From: an uncultured Chthoniobacteraceae bacterium
Lineage (GTDB): Bacteria > Verrucomicrobiota > Verrucomicrobiia > Chthoniobacterales > CAKUMP01
Length of the DNA: 64,000 nucleotides
NCBI GenBank assembly: GCA_965365475.1
Contig: CBDUBV010000002.1
Span: 51 to 64,050, forward strand
Reading direction: 5' to 3'
Below are positions 162 to 58,210 of the stretch, piece by piece; the stretch's first letter is position 1; every line of letters begins with the position of its first letter. The notes below the pieces were generated by a model that ran no database searches, had not been told where the DNA came from, and saw nothing but the letters and a program-made list of their open reading frames with translations. A program made the position numbers and the translations under genes.

Positions 162-190
162 TTGACAGCTTGTTTACGGTGCAGTATTTG
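162..190 (+). promoter_or_regulatory. candidate sigma-70 promoter for the riboswitch leader (TTGACA-17nt-TATTTG)
   Basis: TTGACA at 162-167, 17-nt spacer, TATTTG at 185-190. The predicted transcript start falls a few nt before riboswitch P1 at 200. Confidence 0.5.
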
Positions 191-199
191 CATCGCCAA

Positions 200-337
200 C
201 TCTTATCAAGAGTGGCTGAGGGACTGGCCCTGTGACGCCACGGCAACCGCTCTGCGAAAGCAGGGGACCAGGTGCCAAATCCAGCTCGGAACTGTCTGCG
301 AGGTCATATTCGCAAACATCCTGAGAAAAGATGAGAG
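200..337 (+). promoter_or_regulatory. SAM-I (S-box) riboswitch aptamer
   Basis: CTCTTATCAAGAGTGGCTGAGGGACTGGCCCTGTGACGCCACGGCAACC...GGTGCCAAATCCAGC...AGATGAGAG matches the conserved S-box core. P1 is CTCTTATC (200-207) pairing with GATGAGAG (330-337) with one G-U. P4 is extended and contains an inner TGCGA/TCGCA hairpin. Confidence 0.9.
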
Positions 338-367
338 ATCCGATCAGCACCGGATTTCCATTTTTCC
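335..367 (+). terminator. candidate riboswitch expression-platform terminator
   Basis: GAGATCCG (335-342) pairs with CGGATTTC (351-358), 8 bp with one G-U, followed by CATTTTTCC. The 5' arm overlaps the 3' strand of P1. The stem is short, so this is only moderately convincing. Confidence 0.5.
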
Positions 368-410
368 TCATCCGCGCGGGATGATTCCTGGCAGAGTTAA
401 GTTCCATACT

Positions 411-1658
411 ATGCAAGCTTATTTCTCCAATTTGAAGTGTCGTGAGTGCGGGCGGCTTTACCCGAAAGAAGCGATCCACATCTGTGAGTTCGACTTTGGC
501 CCGCTGGAAGCTGCGTATGACTACGAGGCAATTGCGCGCGTGATGACGCGTTCGCTGGTCGAGTCGCGTCCGCACAGCATGTGGCGCTACCGGGAGCTGT
601 TGCCAGTGGATGGCGAGCCGACTGTCGGGACTCAAGTGGGCTTCACGCCGCTGGTGCGTGCGCGGCGTCTGGCGGAGCGGCTCGGGGTGGAAGAGTTGTA
701 TATTAAAAACGACACGGTGAATTATCCCACGCTGTCATTTAAAGATCGCGTGGTGTCCGTGGCATTGAGCCGGGCGCGCGAGCTGGATTTCAAAATCGTC
801 GCGTGTGCATCCACCGGCAATCTGGCCAATTCCGTGGCAGCCAATGCGGCTTCCGCGGGACTCAAGAGCTACGTCCTCATTCCGTCCAACCTGGAGCAGG
901 GCAAAGTGCTGGGCTCGTTGGTGTATGGAACCAATGTGATCGGAATCCATGGTGCTTACGACCAGGTGAACCGACTGTGCTCGGAGATTGCGGGCAAATA
1001 CGGTTGGGGTTTCGTGAATGTGAATCTGCGCCCTTATTATGCGGAGGGTTCGAAGTCGATGGGGTTCGAGATCGTGGAGCAACTTGGGTGGAAGACCCCG
1101 CGTCACACGGTGATTCCGATGGCCAGCGGGTCGTTGCTTACGAAAATCCATAAAGCGTATAAAGAACTGGCGATTGTCGGGCTTATCGAGGAGCAGGAAT
1201 ATTCCGTCCACGGTGCGCAGGCTACGGGGTGTTCGCCGATCAGTGCGGCTTTAAAAAAAGGGACCGACATTGTGAAGCCAGTGCCGAACCCTGAGACCAT
1301 CGTGAAATCTCTTGCGATCGGCACGCCGGCGGATGGTTATTACGCCATTCACTCCATGAGGAGCACAGGTGGTGCGTGTGAGGATGCCACGGATGCAGAG
1401 GTGATCGAAGGCATTCGATTGCTGGCGGAGACTGAGGGTATATTTTCAGAGACAGCCGGTGGGGTGACTGTGGCGTGTGCAAAAAAGCTTATCGACTCGG
1501 GTCAGATACCGCGCGATGAAAGCATCGTCATCTGCATCACCGGGCATGGTCTCAAGACACAGGAGGCCATCCAGGGCCAATGCGGCGAGCCGAGGTTGAT
1601 CAACCCGAGCTTGCGTGAATTTGAAGCTTTAGTAGCCGATGAACTGGTGTCAGCGTAG
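411..1658 (+). CDS. threonine synthase family PLP enzyme (ThrC / MetM-like)
   Basis: PLP-lysine motif LSFKDR, ASTGNLANS, and an N-terminal KCRECG...HIC zinc-ribbon-like segment as in archaeal-type ThrC. Start taken at ATG 411 (ATG 381 is also possible). The track ORF from 135 runs through the riboswitch. Confidence 0.9.
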   Translation: MQAYFSNLKCRECGRLYPKEAIHICEFDFGPLEAAYDYEAIARVMTRSLVESRPHSMWRYRELLPVDGEPTVGTQVGFTPLVRARRLAERLGVEELYIKNDTVNYPTLSFKDRVVSVALSRARELDFKIVACASTGNLANSVAANAASAGLKSYVLIPSNLEQGKVLGSLVYGTNVIGIHGAYDQVNRLCSEIAGKYGWGFVNVNLRPYYAEGSKSMGFEIVEQLGWKTPRHTVIPMASGSLLTKIHKAYKELAIVGLIEEQEYSVHGAQATGCSPISAALKKGTDIVKPVPNPETIVKSLAIGTPADGYYAIHSMRSTGGACEDATDAEVIEGIRLLAETEGIFSETAGGVTVACAKKLIDSGQIPRDESIVICITGHGLKTQEAIQGQCGEPRLINPSLREFEALVADELVSA

Positions 1659-1680
1659 TCTCGTTTAACTCTATTTTTTT

Positions 1681-1956
1681 ATGTCCACTAATGTAAGAAT
1701 TCCGGTACCGTTGCGTAAACTCACACAAGACCAGGAGGTGGTCGCCGCCCAAGGGGGCACGGTGTCTGCGGTGCTGGACGATCTGGAGGCAAACTATCCA
1801 GGGTTAAAAGAACGACTTTGCGATGAGCATGGGAAGATGCGGCGGTTTGTTAACGTATATCTCAACGACGAAGATATCCGATTTCTGAACGAGCTTGATA
1901 CCGAAGTAAAAGACGGTGATGAAATAAGCATCGTGCCTGCCATCGCCGGCGGGTAG
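1681..1956 (+). CDS. MoaD/ThiS-family ubiquitin-like sulfur-carrier protein
   Basis: 91 aa with a beta-grasp carrier pattern (...YPGLKERL...VNVYLNDEDI...DGDEISIVPAIAGG-stop) and a C-terminal Gly-Gly. It starts 22 nt after the ThrC-like gene. Confidence 0.85.
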   Translation: MSTNVRIPVPLRKLTQDQEVVAAQGGTVSAVLDDLEANYPGLKERLCDEHGKMRRFVNVYLNDEDIRFLNELDTEVKDGDEISIVPAIAGG

Positions 1957-11776: not shown

Positions 11777-12622
11777 ATGTGCACCGCCACCCATCGCATT
11801 CCTGCGACGTCTGCCAATCTCGGCCCCGGTTACGATTGTCTCGGCGTGGCGTTGCGTTTGTATAATGAAGTCACCGTGCGCAGCGGCGCGAGCCAGCAGT
11901 CACCACACCCCATGGCAATTGAGTCCGCGCAGGCTTTTGCACGACGTGCCGATGTGGATTTGTTCGAGTTTGATTGGTCAGTAAAAGGCGATGTGCCGAT
12001 GTCGCGCGGCCTCGGCAGCAGTGTCACGGTCCGGCTTGGGCTGCTCCACGGTTTGAATGAACTCGCGGGAAGTATTCTTGACGCCAACGATCTATACCGG
12101 CTCTGCGTAGAACTCGAAGGCCACCCCGATAATGCCGCGCCGGCAGCTTTCGGTGGCTTTACCGTGGCAGGGGCGGATGCCACATTCAGTCGCTTCAAAG
12201 TCGATCCAGCTTTGCAATTTGTAGTTTTTATTCCTGAGATGCAGATGCTTACTAAAGAAGCGCGAGCCGTCCTGCCTGCTGCCATTCCGCACGAGGACGC
12301 GGTGCGCAATGTGGCAAACGCATGCCGCATCGCAGCAGCGATGGCTGCTGGAGAGTATGAGAAACTGCGCGGCGTCTTCGATGACTTTTTACATCAACCT
12401 TACCGCGCGAGCCTCATGCCTTGTCTGCCCGAGGTGATTCGGGCGGGCGTAGCGGCTGGCGCGCTGGGTGGTTACTTAAGCGGCTCAGGTTCGTGCATGG
12501 CATGCGTGACGCTGAAGCAGGCATCGGAGGTGGGCAGCGCCATGGCGCAAGCCGCAGCGATGCCGGGCGAGCTGGTCATCCTGCAGCCTGACAATGAAGG
12601 CGTCCGCAAAATCACCATATAG
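11777..12622 (+). CDS. thrB: homoserine kinase
   Basis: IPATSANLGPGYDCLG and PMSRGLGSSV GHMP-kinase motifs. Confidence 0.9.
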   Translation: MCTATHRIPATSANLGPGYDCLGVALRLYNEVTVRSGASQQSPHPMAIESAQAFARRADVDLFEFDWSVKGDVPMSRGLGSSVTVRLGLLHGLNELAGSILDANDLYRLCVELEGHPDNAAPAAFGGFTVAGADATFSRFKVDPALQFVVFIPEMQMLTKEARAVLPAAIPHEDAVRNVANACRIAAAMAAGEYEKLRGVFDDFLHQPYRASLMPCLPEVIRAGVAAGALGGYLSGSGSCMACVTLKQASEVGSAMAQAAAMPGELVILQPDNEGVRKITI

Positions 12623-15088: not shown

Positions 15089-15282
15089 AAAAAAGTCCGC
15101 CAGAGAGCCACGACAAAGAGAAGATAACTACCGTTGCTGCATTCCTGCCCTGGCGGGGTTCGTCATTTCTCAGTCCATGGTCCCTGACGGACCACGAAGT
15201 AAACACGAGCGATGGAATAAAGCAAAAACTCTTTCTATCTTCTTGCATTTTCACGGCGTGCTCGTTCTATTGTTCACGCAGT

Positions 15283-22644: not shown

Positions 22645-24081
22645 CTAACCGTGCGGCTGGCTGTCAAGGCGGCTTTGCGCCAGAGCCAAGTCCGCGACAA
22701 GCTCTGAGAACCCTTGCTCCCGTGCCGCGTCATCGGAATTCCTCAGCAGAAAGGAAGGGTGGACGGTGATCATGGTGGAAGCGCAGAATTCTGTTGCAAG
22801 AAAGCGGCCACGCTCGGCCTGAACCGGCATGGTCTGGCCGAATACCGACCGTGCTGCGGTCGATCCCAAACACACCAACACTTGCGGTGCCAACATGCCA
22901 AGTTCAGCTTTCAACCATGGCCGACATGCTTTGATTTCCAGTTCGGCTGGCTTTTTATGCAGACGTCTCTTACCTCGTTGTTCCCATTTAAAATGCTTCA
23001 CCGCATTGGTCAGATAAACGCTGTCCCGAGCGATACCTGCGGACGCAAGTGCGCGTGTAAGCAACTCCCCCGCAGGGCCCACGAAAGGACGTCCAACCAG
23101 GTCTTCCTGATCACCAGGTTGTTCACCTATCAGAACAAGTCGCGCATTGGCGGGTCCTTCACCAAAAACCACGTGCGTTGCTCGTGCATGCAGTGGGCAT
23201 GCCAGGCACTGTCTGCCTGCCTCGCGCAGACCCTGCAAATCTACCGGTGCGAGCCGGGCGATCAGCTCTGAGGCACTGTGTTCGATGCGCACAGGTAGTG
23301 GCTGAGATCTTGCCACCATGGCAGCTACGCGCTCGGGTGCTTCCTGCAAGAGGCGCGAGATATCGCCCGCTTCGGGCAGATTCTTCCAGTATTTCTTCGG
23401 CATCTGTGAGCGCATGGACTCAACCTTCACCCGGGCGGGGTTAAAAATGCTGCCGTAATAACGCCGCCATAAATCCTCGGCTTCGTCGGGAGATGCGGGT
23501 GCATGATTCGCATCCACTCCTGCGGTAAACTCCAATACCTCACCGTTCCAATGCGCACAGGTATCCGGCGTCAAAATTGACCAGCGCAACGCAGCGAGCC
23601 TGTTTCGGAAAAATTTTGCCACCTGCGGCACGACATGGTGTTCCGGTTCGAACCACGCGACCATCACTTCGTTTCCATTCGGGTCGCGCGTTGGGCGAAA
23701 CCTTACGAAAGCCTTCATCTTGTGACTATCGCGCCGCACAGACTTTTCCATGGTAAGGAGACGGTGCACATCCGCGTCCACTGTCACTTTGATCAGATGG
23801 GGTTGCTCATGGATCAATCGCCAGATTACGCGATAAAGTAGTGCCCATCGATGTGGATCACTATGGCATGAAACCGTGCGGGCAAGTTGAAGGAACCGAG
23901 CCGACACACGAGCCGTGGACGGTATCGGGGGCTGTGCTTCAGGCGCGTCCATCATGAATTCAGCCTGCAATTGATTTTTCTCCGTCCATTGCACATCCTC
24001 GGGTGCTGTTCCCGATTGCAATAGATTCCGTGCTGCTGTGCGCCAGGCATCGAATTCGGGCTGAATGCAAACTGTCTTCAC
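22645..24081 (-). CDS. DUF4130 (probable DNA metabolism protein) fused to family-4 uracil-DNA-glycosylase-like domain
   Basis: The C-terminal half has GEGP...LIGEQPGDQEDLVGRPFVGPAG...HPS, the UDG family 4 pattern. I recall the N-terminal half as TIGR03915-type. The ATG overlaps the radical-SAM stop (ATGA). Confidence 0.85.
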   Translation of the reverse strand: MKTVCIQPEFDAWRTAARNLLQSGTAPEDVQWTEKNQLQAEFMMDAPEAQPPIPSTARVSARFLQLARTVSCHSDPHRWALLYRVIWRLIHEQPHLIKVTVDADVHRLLTMEKSVRRDSHKMKAFVRFRPTRDPNGNEVMVAWFEPEHHVVPQVAKFFRNRLAALRWSILTPDTCAHWNGEVLEFTAGVDANHAPASPDEAEDLWRRYYGSIFNPARVKVESMRSQMPKKYWKNLPEAGDISRLLQEAPERVAAMVARSQPLPVRIEHSASELIARLAPVDLQGLREAGRQCLACPLHARATHVVFGEGPANARLVLIGEQPGDQEDLVGRPFVGPAGELLTRALASAGIARDSVYLTNAVKHFKWEQRGKRRLHKKPAELEIKACRPWLKAELGMLAPQVLVCLGSTAARSVFGQTMPVQAERGRFLATEFCASTMITVHPSFLLRNSDDAAREQGFSELVADLALAQSRLDSQPHG

Positions 24082-25280
24082 AGCAACACAAGCTGCTCTG
24101 GCACTGGTGTCGGCGCAGTCACGACCTGCCGCGGGTAATGATCAGCGCATTCTATAAATGGCAGCAGCCGAGCGAGCGGCACGCGGAGTCGTGTCAGATC
24201 AGCGAGTGAGATGCGGTGCCACCGGCGAATCCCAAGAATTCGATCCACTGATTTCACGCCCATGCCAGGGATTCGCAGCAGAGCCTCTCTCGGAGCATGG
24301 TTTATATCTACTGGGAAAAATTCTGGATGCCGAAGACCCCATGCCAGTTTTGGGTCGTGCGCCATGGCAAGCTCGGGGGCGGAATCGGGAAGAATCTCGT
24401 CCACTTCGAATCCATAAAATCGCAACAGCCAATCGGCTTGGTATAAACGATGTTCGCGCACGAGCGGAGGAGCGATCAGCGGCAACTTGGAAGATGCGCT
24501 GGGTATGGGACTGAATGCGGAATAATACACGCGCCGCAAACCGTGCCGACGGTAAAGTGTATCTGCCCGTGACATAATGTCGCGATCGTTTGCCGGCGTG
24601 GCGCCGACGATCATCTGTGTGGATTGCCCGGCGGGGGCAAAAGCAGGTGCCTGACGCGAAGTTTTGTGTGCGTCGCGGGCTTCGGCAATTTTTGTGCGGA
24701 TGCCCTGCATCGCGGATTCTATGCGGGCAAGATTTTTCTCTGGAGCGAGCGCATCGAGATCACGCTGGGAGGCGAGTTCTACATTGATGCTTAGTCGATC
24801 CGCCCATTTACCTGCTTCATCGATCAACTCCTGGGATGCTTCCGGGATGGTTTTGAGATGGATGTACCCGCGGAACTCATGCTCCACGCGCAGAGTCCGG
24901 GCCACTCGGATTACCTGTTCCATGGTGTAGTCCGGATTGCGGATAATGCCAGAGCTAAGGAAGAGGCCCTCGATATAGTTGCGCTTATAAAAATCCAATG
25001 TGAGCTGGACGACTTCATCGGGCGTAAACCGGGCGCGCGGCACATCGCTTGAAACCCGATTGACGCAGTATAGACAATCGTAGATGCAATAGTTGGTGAG
25101 CAGAATTTTCAGTAACGAAACGCAGCGCCCATCGGGAGTATAGCTATGGCAGATACCTGCACCGGTGGTGCTGCCCAGGCCGCCGCTGCGAGAGTCGCGC
25201 CGCATGGTGCTGCTACTTGCGCACGATGCATCGTATTTGGCTGCATCTGCAAGAATCTCGAGCTTTTTGGAAAGTTCCAT
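24078..25280 (-). CDS. putative DNA modification/repair radical SAM protein
   Basis: Radical-SAM cluster motif NYCIYDCLYCVN, an N-terminal YDASC... segment, and a C-terminal helix-hairpin-helix-like INHAPREALLRIPGMGVKSVDRI. It is the conserved partner of the UDG-like gene. Confidence 0.85.
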   Translation of the reverse strand: MELSKKLEILADAAKYDASCASSSTMRRDSRSGGLGSTTGAGICHSYTPDGRCVSLLKILLTNYCIYDCLYCVNRVSSDVPRARFTPDEVVQLTLDFYKRNYIEGLFLSSGIIRNPDYTMEQVIRVARTLRVEHEFRGYIHLKTIPEASQELIDEAGKWADRLSINVELASQRDLDALAPEKNLARIESAMQGIRTKIAEARDAHKTSRQAPAFAPAGQSTQMIVGATPANDRDIMSRADTLYRRHGLRRVYYSAFSPIPSASSKLPLIAPPLVREHRLYQADWLLRFYGFEVDEILPDSAPELAMAHDPKLAWGLRHPEFFPVDINHAPREALLRIPGMGVKSVDRILGIRRWHRISLADLTRLRVPLARLLPFIECADHYPRQVVTAPTPVPEQLVLL

Positions 25281-46754: not shown

Positions 46755-46793
46755 ATGTTGTGCTTGTCAATTATGAGCAGTAAAGTGATCCGT

Positions 46794-47261
46794 ATGAAAC
46801 ATAGCAAAAAAACCCAACGAAGCCTCATCGTGCAGAGCTACCTTCCTGATGCCGCAGAAACATCGCGAATCATGGAAGGGTACGGCGACCGCCCAATGAG
46901 CGATGTGGTGGAGAGCGTGCGCGATGGTTTGCTATTTGCAGAGTTTGAGGCTCTGGCCGAGCTGCTGCAGATGCCCGAAGATGCGCTGGCTGCCGCGTTG
47001 AACATTCCGCGTGCGACACTGCACCGCCGCAAAAAAATGGGCCAGCTTGCCAAGGACGAGAGCGAACGCGTGGTGCGATTTGCACGCGTGTTTGGCGAGG
47101 CGGTAAATCTTTTCGGAACAGCGGAGGCAGCTCGCGAATGGCTGCGGGAGCCTGCCATTGCGTTTGGGGATCAGACTCCGCTTGCGTATATGGACACGGA
47201 GGTCGGTGCCCGGCGAGTGGAAGAATTGCTCGGCAAGATCGCCCACGGTGTATTCGCCTGA
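46794..47261 (+). CDS. Xre/MbcA/ParS-type antitoxin (DUF2384 toxin-binding domain)
   Basis: C-terminal ERVVRFARVFGEAVNLFG..EAAREWL..P..AFGDQTPLAYMDTEVGARRVEELLGKI. The start is ambiguous (ATGs at 46755, 46773, 46794). Confidence 0.8.
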   Translation: MKHSKKTQRSLIVQSYLPDAAETSRIMEGYGDRPMSDVVESVRDGLLFAEFEALAELLQMPEDALAAALNIPRATLHRRKKMGQLAKDESERVVRFARVFGEAVNLFGTAEAAREWLREPAIAFGDQTPLAYMDTEVGARRVEELLGKIAHGVFA

Positions 47262-47278
47262 GTTTGCGGATGTGACAC

Positions 47279-47746
47279 ATGCCAAGTCTGTCGTTATTTC
47301 GACTTGTCTCCATGGCGTACGCCACGACTGCTCTGAGCGGAGAGGGTGCCCGGCTCCATGGTGGAAGATGGAATCCGCCCGGACTGGCATGCGTGTATCT
47401 GGCGGAATCGCGGGCATTGGCGGCGTTGGAGTTGCTGGTTCATCTGACGCCTGGGACTCGCAATCTGCCGCTGACTCTGATCGAATGTTCTGTGGATGCC
47501 GACCTTTGCCGCACGGTCGCTATGTTGCCGCGTGGTTGGGATGCTTTGCCGGAATCTGCCGACGCGCGGCGCATGGGAAGTGAGTGGTTGAAAGCGCGCA
47601 CTTCATTACTTTTGAGAGTCCCTTCCGTCTTTATGCCCGAAGAGAGCAATTTGCTTTTTAATCCGTATCATCCGAAAGCTGGACAGCTCAGAATCGTGGG
47701 CTCGCGACCGTTTCGATTCGACCGAAGATTGGTGACATACCAATGA
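47279..47746 (+). CDS. RES-domain toxin (NAD+-targeting RES family)
   Basis: GARLHGGRWNPPG...YLAESRALAALELLVH...VPSVFMPEESNLLFNP contains the R-E-S signature residues in their usual context. Confidence 0.85.
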   Translation: MPSLSLFRLVSMAYATTALSGEGARLHGGRWNPPGLACVYLAESRALAALELLVHLTPGTRNLPLTLIECSVDADLCRTVAMLPRGWDALPESADARRMGSEWLKARTSLLLRVPSVFMPEESNLLFNPYHPKAGQLRIVGSRPFRFDRRLVTYQ

Positions 47747-49479
47747 AGATTCTGGGTATCGACGGGGGTGGCACAAAGACTGCGTGGTGTTTGTTTTCCA
47801 GCGCTGATGGCGCGCTGCGAGAGACAAGGAAGGGGATGTTGGGTGGAAGCAATATTCGCCTTTGCAGCGATGCCGAATTGATATTGTTGTTTCGGTCGAT
47901 GCCTGCCGATGCTGACCGGGTGGGGGTTTACCTCGCGGGCTGCGTGTCGGAGAAAGATCGGTCTCGATTGGAGAATTTGTCCCGCTTGGTCTGGCCGGGA
48001 GCAGGCCGTGTGGTCGGTAGCGATCGGGAATCCTCGATGGCTGCTGCTTTGGGCAGCCGGGAGGATGGAATCGTGGTGATTTGTGGGACGGGGTCTTCTG
48101 TTACCGGACGCAATGGCGAGCAAATTGAGCGAGTGGGCGGGTGGGGGCATCTACTGGGAGATCGCGGGGGCGGCTACAACCTCGCAGTGCGCGGATTGCG
48201 ATTGGTATTGCGCTCTTTTGATTTGGAACAACGCCTCACTAGCCTTGCACAAACTGTGCTGCGCGAATTGGCGCTGGAGAATCTGCCGGCATTGGTGAGT
48301 TGGGCTCAGGCTGCTGATAAAATGGAAATCGCAAGTCTGGCGCCGGTTTTTTTCCGTGCCGCAGAAGAAGGCGATGAACAGATGCGCGAGCTTCTTCGCG
48401 ACGGTGCGTGCGTGCTTGCGCAGTATGCTGCGAGCGTGGGCAGGCGACTCGGGCTTGCTGATCCCGCGATCCGGTTGATGGGTGGGATTTTTCGCAACCA
48501 GGCGATGTATCGGTTATATTTCCGTGAAGCGATTGAGAGGGAGCTGCCGCACGCGAGGATCGAGCTGGCGGTAAAACGCGCGGTGGAGGGTGCAGCGGTG
48601 CTTGCAATGGAAGCCAGGCCGGAATGCTGCAGCGAGATTGCAAGCGCAACTGCGACGGAGTTGTCGCACGCGATCACAGAACAACGCAATCCGCGATCGT
48701 TCGATTTGGACCGTCTCTCGGCGCGAGAATTTGTTGCGCTGTTTGTTCGGGAAGAACGCTACGTGCAGCAAGCCCTGGCTGAGGCCAGTCCGGCATTGAT
48801 CGAGGCGGTGACGCTGGTTGGAGATGCGATGGCTGATGGCGGACGGCTGTTCTATTTCGGAGCAGGCACCAGTGGCCGCCTGGGCGTGGTGGACGCGAGT
48901 GAGATTCCTCCGACTTTTCGTGCGGCACCGGAGCTAGTCCAAGGGGTGCTGGCGGGCGGCGACGAGGCCATGTTCCGCGCGGTGGAAGGTGTGGAAGATG
49001 ATCGGGATGCCGGAGCGCACGCTGTGCAAGCCCGAGGTGTCCGCGATGCGGATGTGGTGTGTGGAATCGCGGCGAGCGGGAGGACACCTTTTGTCCTGGG
49101 CGCTTTGGGGCAGGCTCGCGCAGTTGGCGCCCGCACGATTTTTCTTACGTGCAATCCCAACCGCGATACGGGCACTGCGGTTGCGGATGTGGAAATCGAT
49201 CTTGCGGTGGGTCCGGAACTGCTTACGGGGTCAACCCGGTTAAAATCCGGGACGGTGACCAAAGTTGTTTTAAACATGCTTTCCACGGGCGCGATGATTC
49301 GTTTGGGGAAAGTGCGCGGCAACATGATGATCGATGTTCATCCGACAAATGAAAAACTTCGCGACCGGGCCACGCGGATTGTGATGTCTCTCACGGGCAT
49401 GGGTTACGATGCAGCCGCTCAGCAACTCGAGCTTTGTAGTTGGAACGTGCGGGACGCTGTGGACCGCGTTAGGAAGTAA
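47743..49479 (+). CDS. fusion protein: BadF/BadG/BcrA/BcrD-type sugar kinase (GlcNAc/MurNAc kinase-like) + N-acetylmuramic acid 6-phosphate etherase MurQ
   Basis: The N-terminal part has MKILGIDGGGTKTAW...ICGTGS...GWGHLLGD.GGG. The C-terminal part has TEQRNPRS...FYFGAGTSGRLGVVDASEIPPTF...GIAASGRTPF (SIS/MurQ). The ATG overlaps the RES toxin stop (ATGA). Confidence 0.85.
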   Translation: MKILGIDGGGTKTAWCLFSSADGALRETRKGMLGGSNIRLCSDAELILLFRSMPADADRVGVYLAGCVSEKDRSRLENLSRLVWPGAGRVVGSDRESSMAAALGSREDGIVVICGTGSSVTGRNGEQIERVGGWGHLLGDRGGGYNLAVRGLRLVLRSFDLEQRLTSLAQTVLRELALENLPALVSWAQAADKMEIASLAPVFFRAAEEGDEQMRELLRDGACVLAQYAASVGRRLGLADPAIRLMGGIFRNQAMYRLYFREAIERELPHARIELAVKRAVEGAAVLAMEARPECCSEIASATATELSHAITEQRNPRSFDLDRLSAREFVALFVREERYVQQALAEASPALIEAVTLVGDAMADGGRLFYFGAGTSGRLGVVDASEIPPTFRAAPELVQGVLAGGDEAMFRAVEGVEDDRDAGAHAVQARGVRDADVVCGIAASGRTPFVLGALGQARAVGARTIFLTCNPNRDTGTAVADVEIDLAVGPELLTGSTRLKSGTVTKVVLNMLSTGAMIRLGKVRGNMMIDVHPTNEKLRDRATRIVMSLTGMGYDAAAQQLELCSWNVRDAVDRVRK

Positions 49480-55924: not shown

Positions 55925-58210
55925 TCACAATCCGTAATCCCGTGAGTAATCCGAGCCGAGGCTTTTAGCGTATGGCACCGATACTCCAGATATTTCGCAG
56001 CCGGTCCTCGGGCCTTCGCCATCCGTGAAGCTTCGGTTGAGCATCATTTCCGAAATGACCCAACCTTTCGCAGCGATGTCACCGAGGGCCGCAGCCACAG
56101 CAGACATGATCTGTGTCGCGCCGCAACCGCTGCCTGCGAGCGGGCCCGTGGGATCGATCTCCACGCGGAATCGGTCCACATCCCGCTTCTCAAAATCGCA
56201 CATGGTCGGATAAATCTCCGTGCCCCGGCTTGTAATGCGAGTAAGATGAAATCCCCGGGCTTTGAGAATGGGTGCTAGCTCGGCTGCGCGCACGCGGTAG
56301 AATGCTTGTACAAGCTGGATGCTTGCACGGTCGAATGAGGTCAATTTTTCCACGGCATCCTGGAGTCTTGTCTGAAGCAATTGCGTGCTGAACCGCGCTG
56401 CAAATGCCGAACCGGTTTCGAGGTGGGATAGCGCATCGCCCAGACTGAGTTTGCCTGCCTGGGGGTCGGCCTCCATGTGCGCACTGAGCATCCGCGCGGC
56501 ATACTGCCCGAAGCTGCGAACGGATTGAATGCTGCCCGCCTTCCCCTCATCGAAAAGAGTCTTGATGTCGATCTCAGAGACACTTTCGAATTCGGCTGCA
56601 ACGAAGGGGTCAATTTCTGTGCCAGCCTCGTCCACTGTTCCATCTGGGGCAAATCGCACTTTCATTCCGGAATCGTCAACAAACAGATCGAACCCGATGA
56701 CTTTCGACTGAGCCCTTACAGGGTTCGGCGGAATGTTGCGGCACAGGTGGCTTTTCCAACTCGAGCTTCCCGTCTCCATGTCCCTGGCAAACTGCTCATA
56801 GGAGCGCAGAACCCGCACGAAAAGCGGCTTCACCTCGGGATCGGCACGGTTCACCGCGATTTGCTTGATCGTTTGTGAAGGATGCGCGGTTTTCAGCTCC
56901 TTGAGCCGGGCGATGTTGGAGACAATTTTATCTGCGAACTCCCGTGTGCCGAGTTTTTCCTTCCCTCGTGCTTCCTGATACGGACCTCGGCGGATGTCCC
57001 CCACGTACCAGCCCTCGGCAAGTACCCCCAGGACTGCGGTCTTGATCAATTCCGCCGCCAGGATGTTTTCATTGCCACCGATGTGAAGGAGCATCTCTGC
57101 GGCTGCATCGATCAACGCCACGGGATTTGCCTTGTTCTGCCCCGCGATATCATCCGCCGTGCCGCCCATGGTCTCAAACATGGAGACCGCATTCGGGTTG
57201 TTGGGATTGGTGTTGTTGCTACTCACCAAGCCCACACCGCCTGTCACCTTCGCCGCGATGTCGGAGCCGATATCTCCAAACATGTTCGTCGTGACAACCA
57301 CATCAAATGTCTGCGGCGCTGCAGCAATTGCGGCGAGACCATCGTCGATGATCATAAAATTGGCTTGAATGCCGCGTTCCCCCAGCATGTCCGCACTGTA
57401 GTCCTTGGCGACTTTTAAAAAGCTTTCCTTAAAGAGCCCGCCGGTGATTTTCAAAATATTGGGCTTCTCCAGCGCGGTGACTTTCTTGCGTCCGTCGCGC
57501 AATGCGGCTTCGAAAGCGGCGCGGCAGATCAGTTCGCACCCCTCCGGCGTTTGGTGCCGCAACGCCTGTGGATAGTTGCGCCCAAGTCGGTGCTCAATCG
57601 AAGCATAGAGGTCCTCGACATTTTCACGGACGAACAGGATGTCTGCTCCTGGAATCCCGGGCGCGATGGGATCGAGTGTCACGCACCGGCGGATGTTGGC
57701 ATACTGTTCGAAGGCCTTGCGGATGGTAACATTTCGGCTGGGTTCATCGCCTTCATCCAGCGTGCGAAGCGCTCCTTTTAACACCGCCGATGCACGAGCG
57801 GCGTCCAGCAGCGTCTGCTTTTCCAGGTCGGCAACCAATGTTTTGATGGCTCGTAACACCTCGGGCTGCAACTTCGATAGAAGTTTTTTGTAAAAGTCGT
57901 TGATGTCTCCTCCCGCTTGAGCCTCCTGCCGGGCTTCCTTTTCCATACGTGCAGCAACTGCTCCGGCATCCTCAGTTCCGAACTGACTCGCATAGACCTC
58001 CGGAGCGTGGGAATTAAGCAATGGAAAAAGCTGAGCCGCATCCGGGTAGCCGAGGCTGCCTTCTATGGTGTTCATCGGAATGCCCGTTGCAGCCAATACT
58101 CTCAAGGTGGCTTCGATGCACTCGGGCCCAATGCCTTGGCCTCTGACTAATAGAATAGTATTTCCCGACTTCAGTTTCTGATCTTGTGGTGCAATGGGCG
58201 ATGGACTCAT
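55925..58210 (-). CDS. isocitrate/isopropylmalate dehydrogenase-family protein with ~320-aa C-terminal extension of unknown function
   Basis: The first ~440 aa have VRGQGIGPE, KGALRT...PSRNVTIRK (compare E. coli Icd KGPLTTP...SLNVALR), NIRR, VRENVEDLY, and TNMFGDIGSD. The rest matched no family I recognise. Confidence 0.8.
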   Translation of the reverse strand: MSPSPIAPQDQKLKSGNTILLVRGQGIGPECIEATLRVLAATGIPMNTIEGSLGYPDAAQLFPLLNSHAPEVYASQFGTEDAGAVAARMEKEARQEAQAGGDINDFYKKLLSKLQPEVLRAIKTLVADLEKQTLLDAARASAVLKGALRTLDEGDEPSRNVTIRKAFEQYANIRRCVTLDPIAPGIPGADILFVRENVEDLYASIEHRLGRNYPQALRHQTPEGCELICRAAFEAALRDGRKKVTALEKPNILKITGGLFKESFLKVAKDYSADMLGERGIQANFMIIDDGLAAIAAAPQTFDVVVTTNMFGDIGSDIAAKVTGGVGLVSSNNTNPNNPNAVSMFETMGGTADDIAGQNKANPVALIDAAAEMLLHIGGNENILAAELIKTAVLGVLAEGWYVGDIRRGPYQEARGKEKLGTREFADKIVSNIARLKELKTAHPSQTIKQIAVNRADPEVKPLFVRVLRSYEQFARDMETGSSSWKSHLCRNIPPNPVRAQSKVIGFDLFVDDSGMKVRFAPDGTVDEAGTEIDPFVAAEFESVSEIDIKTLFDEGKAGSIQSVRSFGQYAARMLSAHMEADPQAGKLSLGDALSHLETGSAFAARFSTQLLQTRLQDAVEKLTSFDRASIQLVQAFYRVRAAELAPILKARGFHLTRITSRGTEIYPTMCDFEKRDVDRFRVEIDPTGPLAGSGCGATQIMSAVAAALGDIAAKGWVISEMMLNRSFTDGEGPRTGCEISGVSVPYAKSLGSDYSRDYGL

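Follow-up and report, generated by a model that had tools for sequence, protein, structure and literature searches.

A SAM-I riboswitch and a probable MetM/MetO-type homocysteine synthase operon in Chthoniobacterales

The stretch of DNA examined here, a window of 64,000 nucleotides (nt) on contig CBDUBV010000002.1 of an uncultured soil Chthoniobacteraceae bacterium, carries close to its left edge, at positions 162-1956, what is most probably a two-gene methionine-biosynthesis operon of Chthoniobacterales encoding a homocysteine synthase of the MetM/MetO type. An S-adenosylmethionine (SAM)-I riboswitch aptamer is followed by a gene for a pyridoxal 5'-phosphate (PLP) enzyme of the threonine synthase (ThrC) family and by a gene for a small sulfur carrier protein. 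The enzyme separates phylogenetically from characterised threonine synthases, and both its gene neighbourhood and its association with the riboswitch are conserved in related loci. The assignment to the MetM/MetO type had already been proposed in an initial annotation of this DNA, and it is supported by the clade into which the enzyme falls, by the carrier linkage, by the riboswitch and by the presence, across phyla, of neighbouring genes for E1-type activating enzymes, JAMM proteins and CysM-like enzymes. The locus is thus a new example, in Chthoniobacterales, of a system described in Streptomyces in 2024, and not a new kind of system.

In Streptomyces albulus, according to the account that the GapMind preprint of 2026 (10.1101/2024.10.14.618325) gives of Hasebe et al. 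2024 (Appl Environ Microbiol 90:e01247-24), MetM converts O-phosphohomoserine to homocysteine using the thiocarboxylate of the carrier MetO, with MoeZ acting as the sulfur ligase and Mec as the hydrolase. MetM proteins are commonly misannotated as threonine synthases (10.1101/2024.10.14.618325). A SAM riboswitch upstream of S. albulus metM is part of the Streptomyces description (PMC12172450), and the novelty that the initial annotation had attached to SAM riboswitch control of such a pair was accordingly overstated. The precedents that it had named are all documented: CysO-CysM (PDB 3dwg), HcyS-MetY (PMC5764234) and MetM/MetO itself (10.1101/2024.10.14.618325; PMC12172450).

The leader of the operon is a SAM-I (S-box) aptamer, for which SAM binding is predicted. 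A search with the Rfam model RF00162 returned positions 200-337 of the forward strand, exactly the coordinates first proposed, with 77.2 bits (gathering score 44.4; E 2e-16) and a match to the whole model (1-108 of 108). Helix P1 is formed by 200-207 and 330-337, and P4 carries a long insert of 31 nt in the RF00162 alignment. When eight leaders of related loci were aligned, 6 of the 22 predicted pairs in P1-P3 were found to be changed on both sides, with compensatory changes in each of P1, P2 and P3; the count covers these three helices, P4 having aligned poorly. Upstream of the aptamer, a promoter-like site can be read from the sequence at 162-190 (+), with a -35 box TTGACA (162-167), a 17-nt spacer and a -10 box TATTTG (185-190). 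A consensus promoter scan did not call this site, whose -10 box matches the consensus at only 3 of 6 positions. Nevertheless, Chthoniobacterales relatives with diverged flanks (loci L002-L006 and L010) retain both a TTGAC box and a -10 box of TAnnnT-like form, equally far from the aptamer. Because the boxes keep their position in leaders that are otherwise diverged, we accept 162-190 as the likely promoter, in agreement with the initial annotation and despite the silence of the consensus scan.

The wider distribution of this arrangement was assessed by a scan with the family alignment of one genome per GTDB species, which gave over 600 loci. Analysis focused on the best 80 of these, with identities of 56-86%. 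They span more than 10 phyla, including Verrucomicrobiota and Kiritimatiellae, Planctomycetota, Thermodesulfobacteriota/Deltaproteobacteria, Nitrospirota, Nitrospinota, Cyanobacteria (among them Microcystis and Nostoc), Actinomycetota, Acidobacteriota, Methylomirabilota and Omnitrophota. Streptomyces is not represented among these 80, and the top matches listed for a profile built from two actinobacterial homologues came from Micromonosporaceae and Acidimicrobiia. In 77 of the 80, a gene for a carrier homologue closely follows that of the enzyme on its 3' side. A covariance model was built from eight leaders of these loci and run on 858 kb, where it placed a SAM-I aptamer directly upstream of the gene for the enzyme, both sharing one strand, in 24 of the 80 loci, 18 of which lie outside the model-building set, and found no SAM-I match elsewhere in the 858 kb. 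The 24 riboswitch loci comprise 10 from Verrucomicrobiota and 6 from Planctomycetota, together with Kiritimatiellae, a deltaproteobacterium, Ca. Acidulodesulfobacterium, an acidobacterium and an actinomycete, so that the association extends to lineages of at least six phyla. The same model detected no upstream aptamer in the cyanobacterial or Nitrospirota loci among the 80, and in four loci an Rrf2 regulator stands upstream instead. As one further case, a complete relative genome (L002) holds riboswitch, enzyme and carrier in this order.

The first gene of the operon, which we refer to as metM-like, occupies 411-1658 (+) and matches PF00291 with 222 bits. As initially annotated, it encodes a ThrC-family PLP enzyme with an SFKDR motif (residues 109-113), and K111 of this motif aligns with K61 of Thermus ThrC and is the predicted PLP Schiff-base lysine. 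The length of 416 residues given at that time has to be corrected to 415, since the 416 codons include the stop. The public gene call begins at ATG 381 and gives a protein of 425 residues; relatives begin 2-4 codons ahead of the position equivalent to 411, which makes ATG 411 the more likely start as judged from this comparison. A longer open reading frame (ORF) of 507 residues (135-1658) was rejected as the gene, as it would cross the riboswitch and as homologues start near 411. The closest homologues, with 82-86% identity, come from metagenome-assembled genomes (MAGs) of Chthoniobacterales/Terrimicrobiaceae and from a Chthoniobacter flavus MAG, which confirms the genome of the Planctomycetes-Verrucomicrobia-Chlamydiae (PVC) type that had been supposed; identity is 60% to a Microcystis homologue and 53% to a riboswitch-linked homologue from Nonomuraea.

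Several features set this protein apart from threonine synthases. Its N-terminal segment of about 55 residues is cysteine-rich and zinc-ribbon-like (C10, C13, C25, D28) and is absent from the solved ThrCs of Aquifex (2zsj), Thermus (1uim), B. subtilis (6cgq) and M. tuberculosis (2d1f), which align from residue ~55 on with 158-180 bits; the second ThrC paralogue encoded in a Nitrospirota locus (L061) reaches 450-520 bits against the same four structures. In a neighbour-joining tree of 43 sequences, each of 100 bootstrap replicates set the canonical group, made up of the four PDB sequences and three Nitrospirota paralogues, apart from the MetM-like proteins as a whole, with the window protein on the MetM-like side. 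Identity of the window protein to the canonical group is 34-37%, compared with 57-86% to the MetM-like proteins of the best 80 loci. At the substrate-phosphate positions, T88 of Thermus ThrC is replaced by L138 and R160 by Y210, with a family-invariant arginine, R207, three residues earlier. The GNAGN loop of Thermus ThrC reads ASGSL, the ASTGN loop is kept, and the canonical NPYRxEGQK has become NLRPYYAEGSK. Within the N-terminal CxxC...CxxC, the fourth cysteine is an aspartate (CEFDFGPLE) in all Verrucomicrobiota loci and in several of Planctomycetota (including L002-L013, L021, L023, L029, L033, L057 and L068), and Microcystis-type proteins (L055, L063, L069) are without the first CxxC, having SKEGG.

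All public records consulted name the protein threonine synthase because it passes the cut-off of the TIGR00260 thrC equivalog model (277.3 bits against 167.1), and no other thrC lies within the 64 kb. Taken at face value, it would be the ordinary or the sole threonine synthase of the organism, perhaps bifunctional, and the adjoining carrier would serve another pathway; a Microcystis homologue with weak threonine-forming activity in vitro (PMC12172450) points the same way. This is hard to reconcile with the unanimous bootstrap split and low identity to characterised ThrCs, with the altered substrate-phosphate and PLP-loop residues, with SAM-I control in 24 of 80 loci and with a carrier linkage kept in 77. 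Moreover, canonical thrC genes coexist with the MetM-like gene in other genomes. Three clusters of Nitrospirota/Thermodesulfovibrio (L024, 6001-8941; L027, 178-3268; L061, 145-6032) carry on a single strand the enzyme, the carrier, a canonical thrC, a HomK-like phosphomutase-family gene and an aspartokinase gene. These clusters show, at the level of gene content, a tie between the enzyme-carrier pair and the homoserine branch, with both ThrC paralogues present and both predicted uses of O-phosphohomoserine encoded side by side. In Nonomuraea gerenzanensis (NZ_LT559118.1, L083), found by a tblastn search of PLSDB, a SAM-I aptamer (68.7 bits) precedes a MetM-like gene and a 91-residue carrier ending AVAGG, and a separate canonical thrC lies 9.3 Mb from this locus. 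(The 11.85-Mb replicon is filed in PLSDB as 'plasmid I', with 10 features, and is evidently the chromosome.) We therefore regard a housekeeping threonine synthase as highly unlikely, in line with the initial annotation, and consider that the TIGR00260 model evidently fails to discriminate MetM. Just as unlikely is the related possibility that the MetM-like protein is the only ThrC-family enzyme of its lineage and makes both threonine and homocysteine from O-phosphohomoserine, in which case the SAM riboswitch would also gate threonine synthesis.

The second gene, metO-like, follows at 1681-1956 (+) after an intergenic gap of 22 nt and encodes, as first described, a carrier of 91 residues with the ThiS/MoaD fold that ends AIAGG (PF02597, 72 bits). 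Among solved structures it is most similar to CysO from the CysO-CysM complex of M. tuberculosis (3dwg_C; E 1e-25 along the full length), followed by the related 4n6e_B (E 2e-23). The Pfam match to the ThiS family, together with the passing of the NCBIfam moaD_arch model (53.5 bits against a cut-off of 49.5), could be taken to mean that the carrier is a MoaD or ThiS protein of molybdopterin or thiamin synthesis which stands beside a PLP enzyme by chance. Yet the bacterial MoaD models fail by a wide margin (TIGR01682, 16.7 against 66.15; NF008347, 17.8 against 94), as does the ThiS model TIGR01683 (17.4 against 37.45). ORF scans of the window found no moaE, and neither moaE nor thiG/thiF is nearby; none of the 80 loci shows a carrier that clusters with MoaD next to moaE, and a chance neighbour would not be expected to keep its place beside the enzyme in 77 of them. 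Such a role has only the slightest probability, and by its similarities the carrier is nearer to those that feed PLP sulfhydrylases, namely CysO, than to MoaD or ThiS. Among 76 carrier homologues, 56 end in GG directly followed by the stop and 20 are extended, several of them by fusion to a NIL domain. Of the 20 extended forms, 10 have a JAMM gene nearby, against only 3 of the 56 GG-stop forms. Since the window carrier already ends in GG, it should need no C-terminal trimming.

The genes that accompany the pair in other genomes also bear on its likely function. ThiF-type E1 genes are found near 22 loci, Prok-JAB/JAMM genes near 13 and genes for CysM-like PLP enzymes near 17, along with class V aminotransferase/cysteine desulfurase genes (7 loci), sulfite-reductase-like genes (3) and genes for 3'-phosphoadenosine 5'-phosphosulfate (PAPS) reductase (3). 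The similarity of the carrier to CysO raises the question of whether the pair makes cysteine, in the manner of CysO-CysM, with the ThrC-like enzyme acting on O-phosphoserine. In some bacteria, cysteine genes are likewise under the control of SAM-I riboswitches. O-Phosphoserine is also the substrate of cysteate synthase, another ThrC paralogue with the same N-terminal segment, and the window enzyme matches the family model TIGR03844 at E 6e-19. In the 17 loci mentioned, however, a separate CysM-like enzyme stands beside the same carrier and MetM-like gene, which suggests two enzymes and two products. The Nitrospirota clusters, with their HomK-like, thrC and aspartokinase genes, represent the homoserine branch, and the characterised family member uses O-phosphohomoserine, according to the account of the Streptomyces work (10.1101/2024.10.14.618325). 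Cysteine synthesis by this pair is thus very improbable, and homocysteine is the product that we expect.

The CysM/CysK-like genes that adjoin the carrier and the MetM-like gene, often together with genes for E1 and JAMM proteins, occur in loci L016, L017, L019, L022, L025, L026, L031, L034, L035, L041, L047, L053, L066 and L073-L076. As both types of enzyme gene adjoin one carrier in these 17 loci, gene order suggests that a single carrier may serve both cysteine and homocysteine synthesis. A different kind of duplication is seen in nine cyanobacterial loci (L032, L037, L038, L044, L051, L054, L064, L071 and L072), where a second, more distant ThiS/MoaD-family gene (88 residues, ending SGG) lies ~0.8 kb upstream of the metM-like gene, and the downstream MetO-like gene is also present.

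A further gene is frequently associated with the carrier. In 31 of 81 related loci, from several phyla, a NIL-domain protein of ~80 residues (PF09383) is either encoded just 3' of the carrier or fused after its GG. Most Verrucomicrobiota loci have such a gene; separate NIL genes are found in L002 (11636-11881), L004-L006, L008, L011-L014 and L018, and fusions in L016, L017, L019, L022, L026 and L031. NIL domains bind methionine in the MetN transporter. In methanogens they have been linked to homocysteine synthesis (PMC5764234). The NIL-domain protein could act as a third, so far overlooked partner in the pathway, for instance as a methionine sensor or a sulfur relay.

How the aptamer is connected to expression of the window operon is less clear-cut than the aptamer itself. 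The initial annotation had placed a short terminator at 335-367 (+). The hairpin is present, with an 8-bp stem (335-342/351-358) followed by CAUUUUUCC, and on its own the 335-358 hairpin folds at -10.3 kcal/mol. As a regulatory terminator it is marginal: terminator-like sites are as common in shuffled sequence (2 found against 2.4 expected), the stem overlaps the 3' strand of P1 by 3 nt (G335-G337), leaving only 5 bp when P1 is fully formed, and minimum-free-energy and partial folds of the leader revealed no antiterminator alternative that excludes the hairpin. The element 335-367 is thus genuine as sequence and weak as a regulatory terminator, and we list it as a weak candidate expression platform. 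In the folds, once the 3' strand of P1 is freed, its partner is either the U run or the heptamer CUCAUCC (367-373). The latter belongs to a possible, unproven alternative-pairing element at 367-384 (+), in which CUCAUCC is complementary both to GAUGAG (330-335, in the P1 3' strand) and to GGAUGA (379-384), with duplex energies of -8.5 and -7.5 kcal/mol, respectively; a CUCRUCC-like element is also found in L002 and L005. GGAUGA spans ATG 381, and sequestration of this codon could act as a switch of translation, but only provided that 381 is the start, which is doubtful, as relatives point to a start near 411. Textbook terminator/antiterminator pairs, with a terminator 5' arm complementary to the P1 3' strand, do occur in more distant relatives (L017, L026, L020, L031, L082, L009, L012 and L013). 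SAM-dependent repression thus appears well supported at the level of the family, and the platform in the lineage of the window is a candidate only.

The surroundings of the operon were also considered. Whereas the initial annotation took the locus to be cut by the left edge of the window, the operon is complete there, because the contig (ENA ERZ23498675 scaffold_129, 68,577 bp) starts only 50 nt further left and because the gene upstream of the locus in relatives, including one complete relative genome, is unrelated. The homoserine kinase gene thrB lies at 11777-12622 (+), as initially annotated, and its product matches TIGR00191 with 184.5 bits (cut-off 168.25). It is not part of the metM-metO operon, being paired with lpxK and separated from metO by genes on both strands.

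Compared with the known systems, the window locus most resembles MetM/MetO of S. albulus. In both, a SAM riboswitch precedes a ThrC-homologous PLP enzyme gene and then a gene for a small GG-type carrier, there is a homoserine kinase as supplier of the substrate, and annotations of the enzyme uniformly read threonine synthase. The differences are that the window derives from Verrucomicrobiota (Chthoniobacterales) and has no gene for a MoeZ-type E1 or a Mec/JAMM protein within 64 kb, that its carrier ends directly in GG and that the fourth cysteine of the zinc ribbon is an aspartate in its lineage. With the CysO-CysM-Mec-MoeZ system of M. tuberculosis (3dwg) it shares a closely homologous carrier and, presumably, the logic by which a PLP enzyme with a phosphorylated hydroxy-amino acid as its substrate receives sulfur from a protein thiocarboxylate; the window enzyme, in contrast, belongs to the ThrC family and not to CysM/CysK, its expected substrate is O-phosphohomoserine in place of O-phosphoserine and its expected product is homocysteine. 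The HcyS-MetY system of Wolinella succinogenes (with HcyD and HcyF) likewise employs the thiocarboxylate of a ubiquitin-like carrier as the sulfide donor for homocysteine (Krishnamoorthy and Begley 2011, cited in PMC5764234). Unlike the window enzyme, Wolinella MetY is an O-acetylhomoserine sulfhydrylase of fold type I that acts on acylated homoserine. With canonical ThrC, finally, the window enzyme has in common the fold type II PLP domain, the SFKDR lysine motif, the ASTGN loop and the presumed substrate; it differs in its SAM-I-regulated operon with a sulfur carrier, in the extra N-terminal segment of ~55 residues and in its separate clade.

Several points weigh against the assignment as a MetM/MetO-type homocysteine synthase and have kept our confidence below certainty. 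Besides the high TIGR00260 score, these include the genes that are missing from the neighbourhood: ORF scans and six-frame tblastn of the 64-kb window revealed no gene for a ThiF/MoeZ-type E1 or a JAMM protein, in line with the initial annotation, and ORF scans and tblastn revealed no NIL or sulfur-assimilation gene. The cognate E1 (and JAMM protein) is presumably encoded elsewhere in the genome. Within the same window, on a contig of 68.6 kb, there is also no second thrC and no metA, metX, metY or metB, and a canonical thrC or a metA/X-metY/B route may be encoded in this genome beyond it. MetM homologues are present in cyanobacteria (PMC12172450), and that of Microcystis aeruginosa, which adjoins a metO-like gene and is 51.6% identical to MetM, is reported to have weak activity both as a threonine synthase and as a threonine deaminase, and no clear function as a MetM (PMC12172450). 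To the characterised MetM of S. albulus the window enzyme is tied indirectly, through conserved gene order, the riboswitch that both have and a chain of similarity by way of the Microcystis and Nonomuraea homologues. The expression platform is weakly defined in the window, its hairpin being weak and overlapping P1. The function assigned to the protein is a prediction from sequence.

From the evidence as a whole we infer the substrate, the product, the sulfur donor, the E1 partner and the coupling of the aptamer to expression, which together suggest the following course of events. Transcription would start near position 197 from a sigma-70-type promoter, and when SAM is abundant, the bound aptamer would turn the operon down. 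ThrB, encoded 10 kb away, would supply O-phospho-L-homoserine, and a ThiF/MoeZ-type E1, with its gene elsewhere in the genome, would have to adenylate and sulfurate the carrier. The MetM-type enzyme would take O-phospho-L-homoserine and eliminate phosphate in a PLP-dependent gamma-replacement, accepting sulfur from the C-terminal thiocarboxylate of the carrier as the nucleophile in place of the water that ThrC adds. The product would be homocysteine, the precursor of methionine.

The remainder of the window holds several features that are not connected with this operon. A small bacterial signal recognition particle (SRP) RNA is encoded at 15095-15189 (-), with 55.6 bits to RF00169 (gathering score 40). 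At 22645-25280 (-), a gene for a radical-SAM protein (TIGR03916, 576 bits) is followed by one for a fused TIGR03915/UdgX-family uracil-DNA-binding protein (TIGR03914), a pair that NCBIfam labels as putative DNA repair or modification proteins. A type II toxin-antitoxin pair of the RES/Xre (ParS/ParT-like) kind lies at 46755-47746 (+), between nadD and a murQ-containing gene. The latter (47743-49479, +; 578 residues) is an apparent fusion of an N-acetylglucosamine-kinase-like part (residues 99-253) with the N-acetylmuramic acid 6-phosphate etherase MurQ (306-574). Lastly, an ORF of 761 residues at 55925-58210 (-) has homology to isocitrate/isopropylmalate dehydrogenases in residues ~125-450 only, its long flanks giving no NCBIfam match at E 1e-10.

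The reannotation of this protein from threonine synthase to probable homocysteine synthase would correct the metabolic reconstruction not only of Chthoniobacterales, but of many other phyla from soil and aquatic habitats. Without it, these phyla would appear either to lack a route to methionine or to hold a redundant thrC. The comparative data, in turn, provide independent support for the discovery made in Streptomyces in 2024 and indicate that the pathway is widespread.

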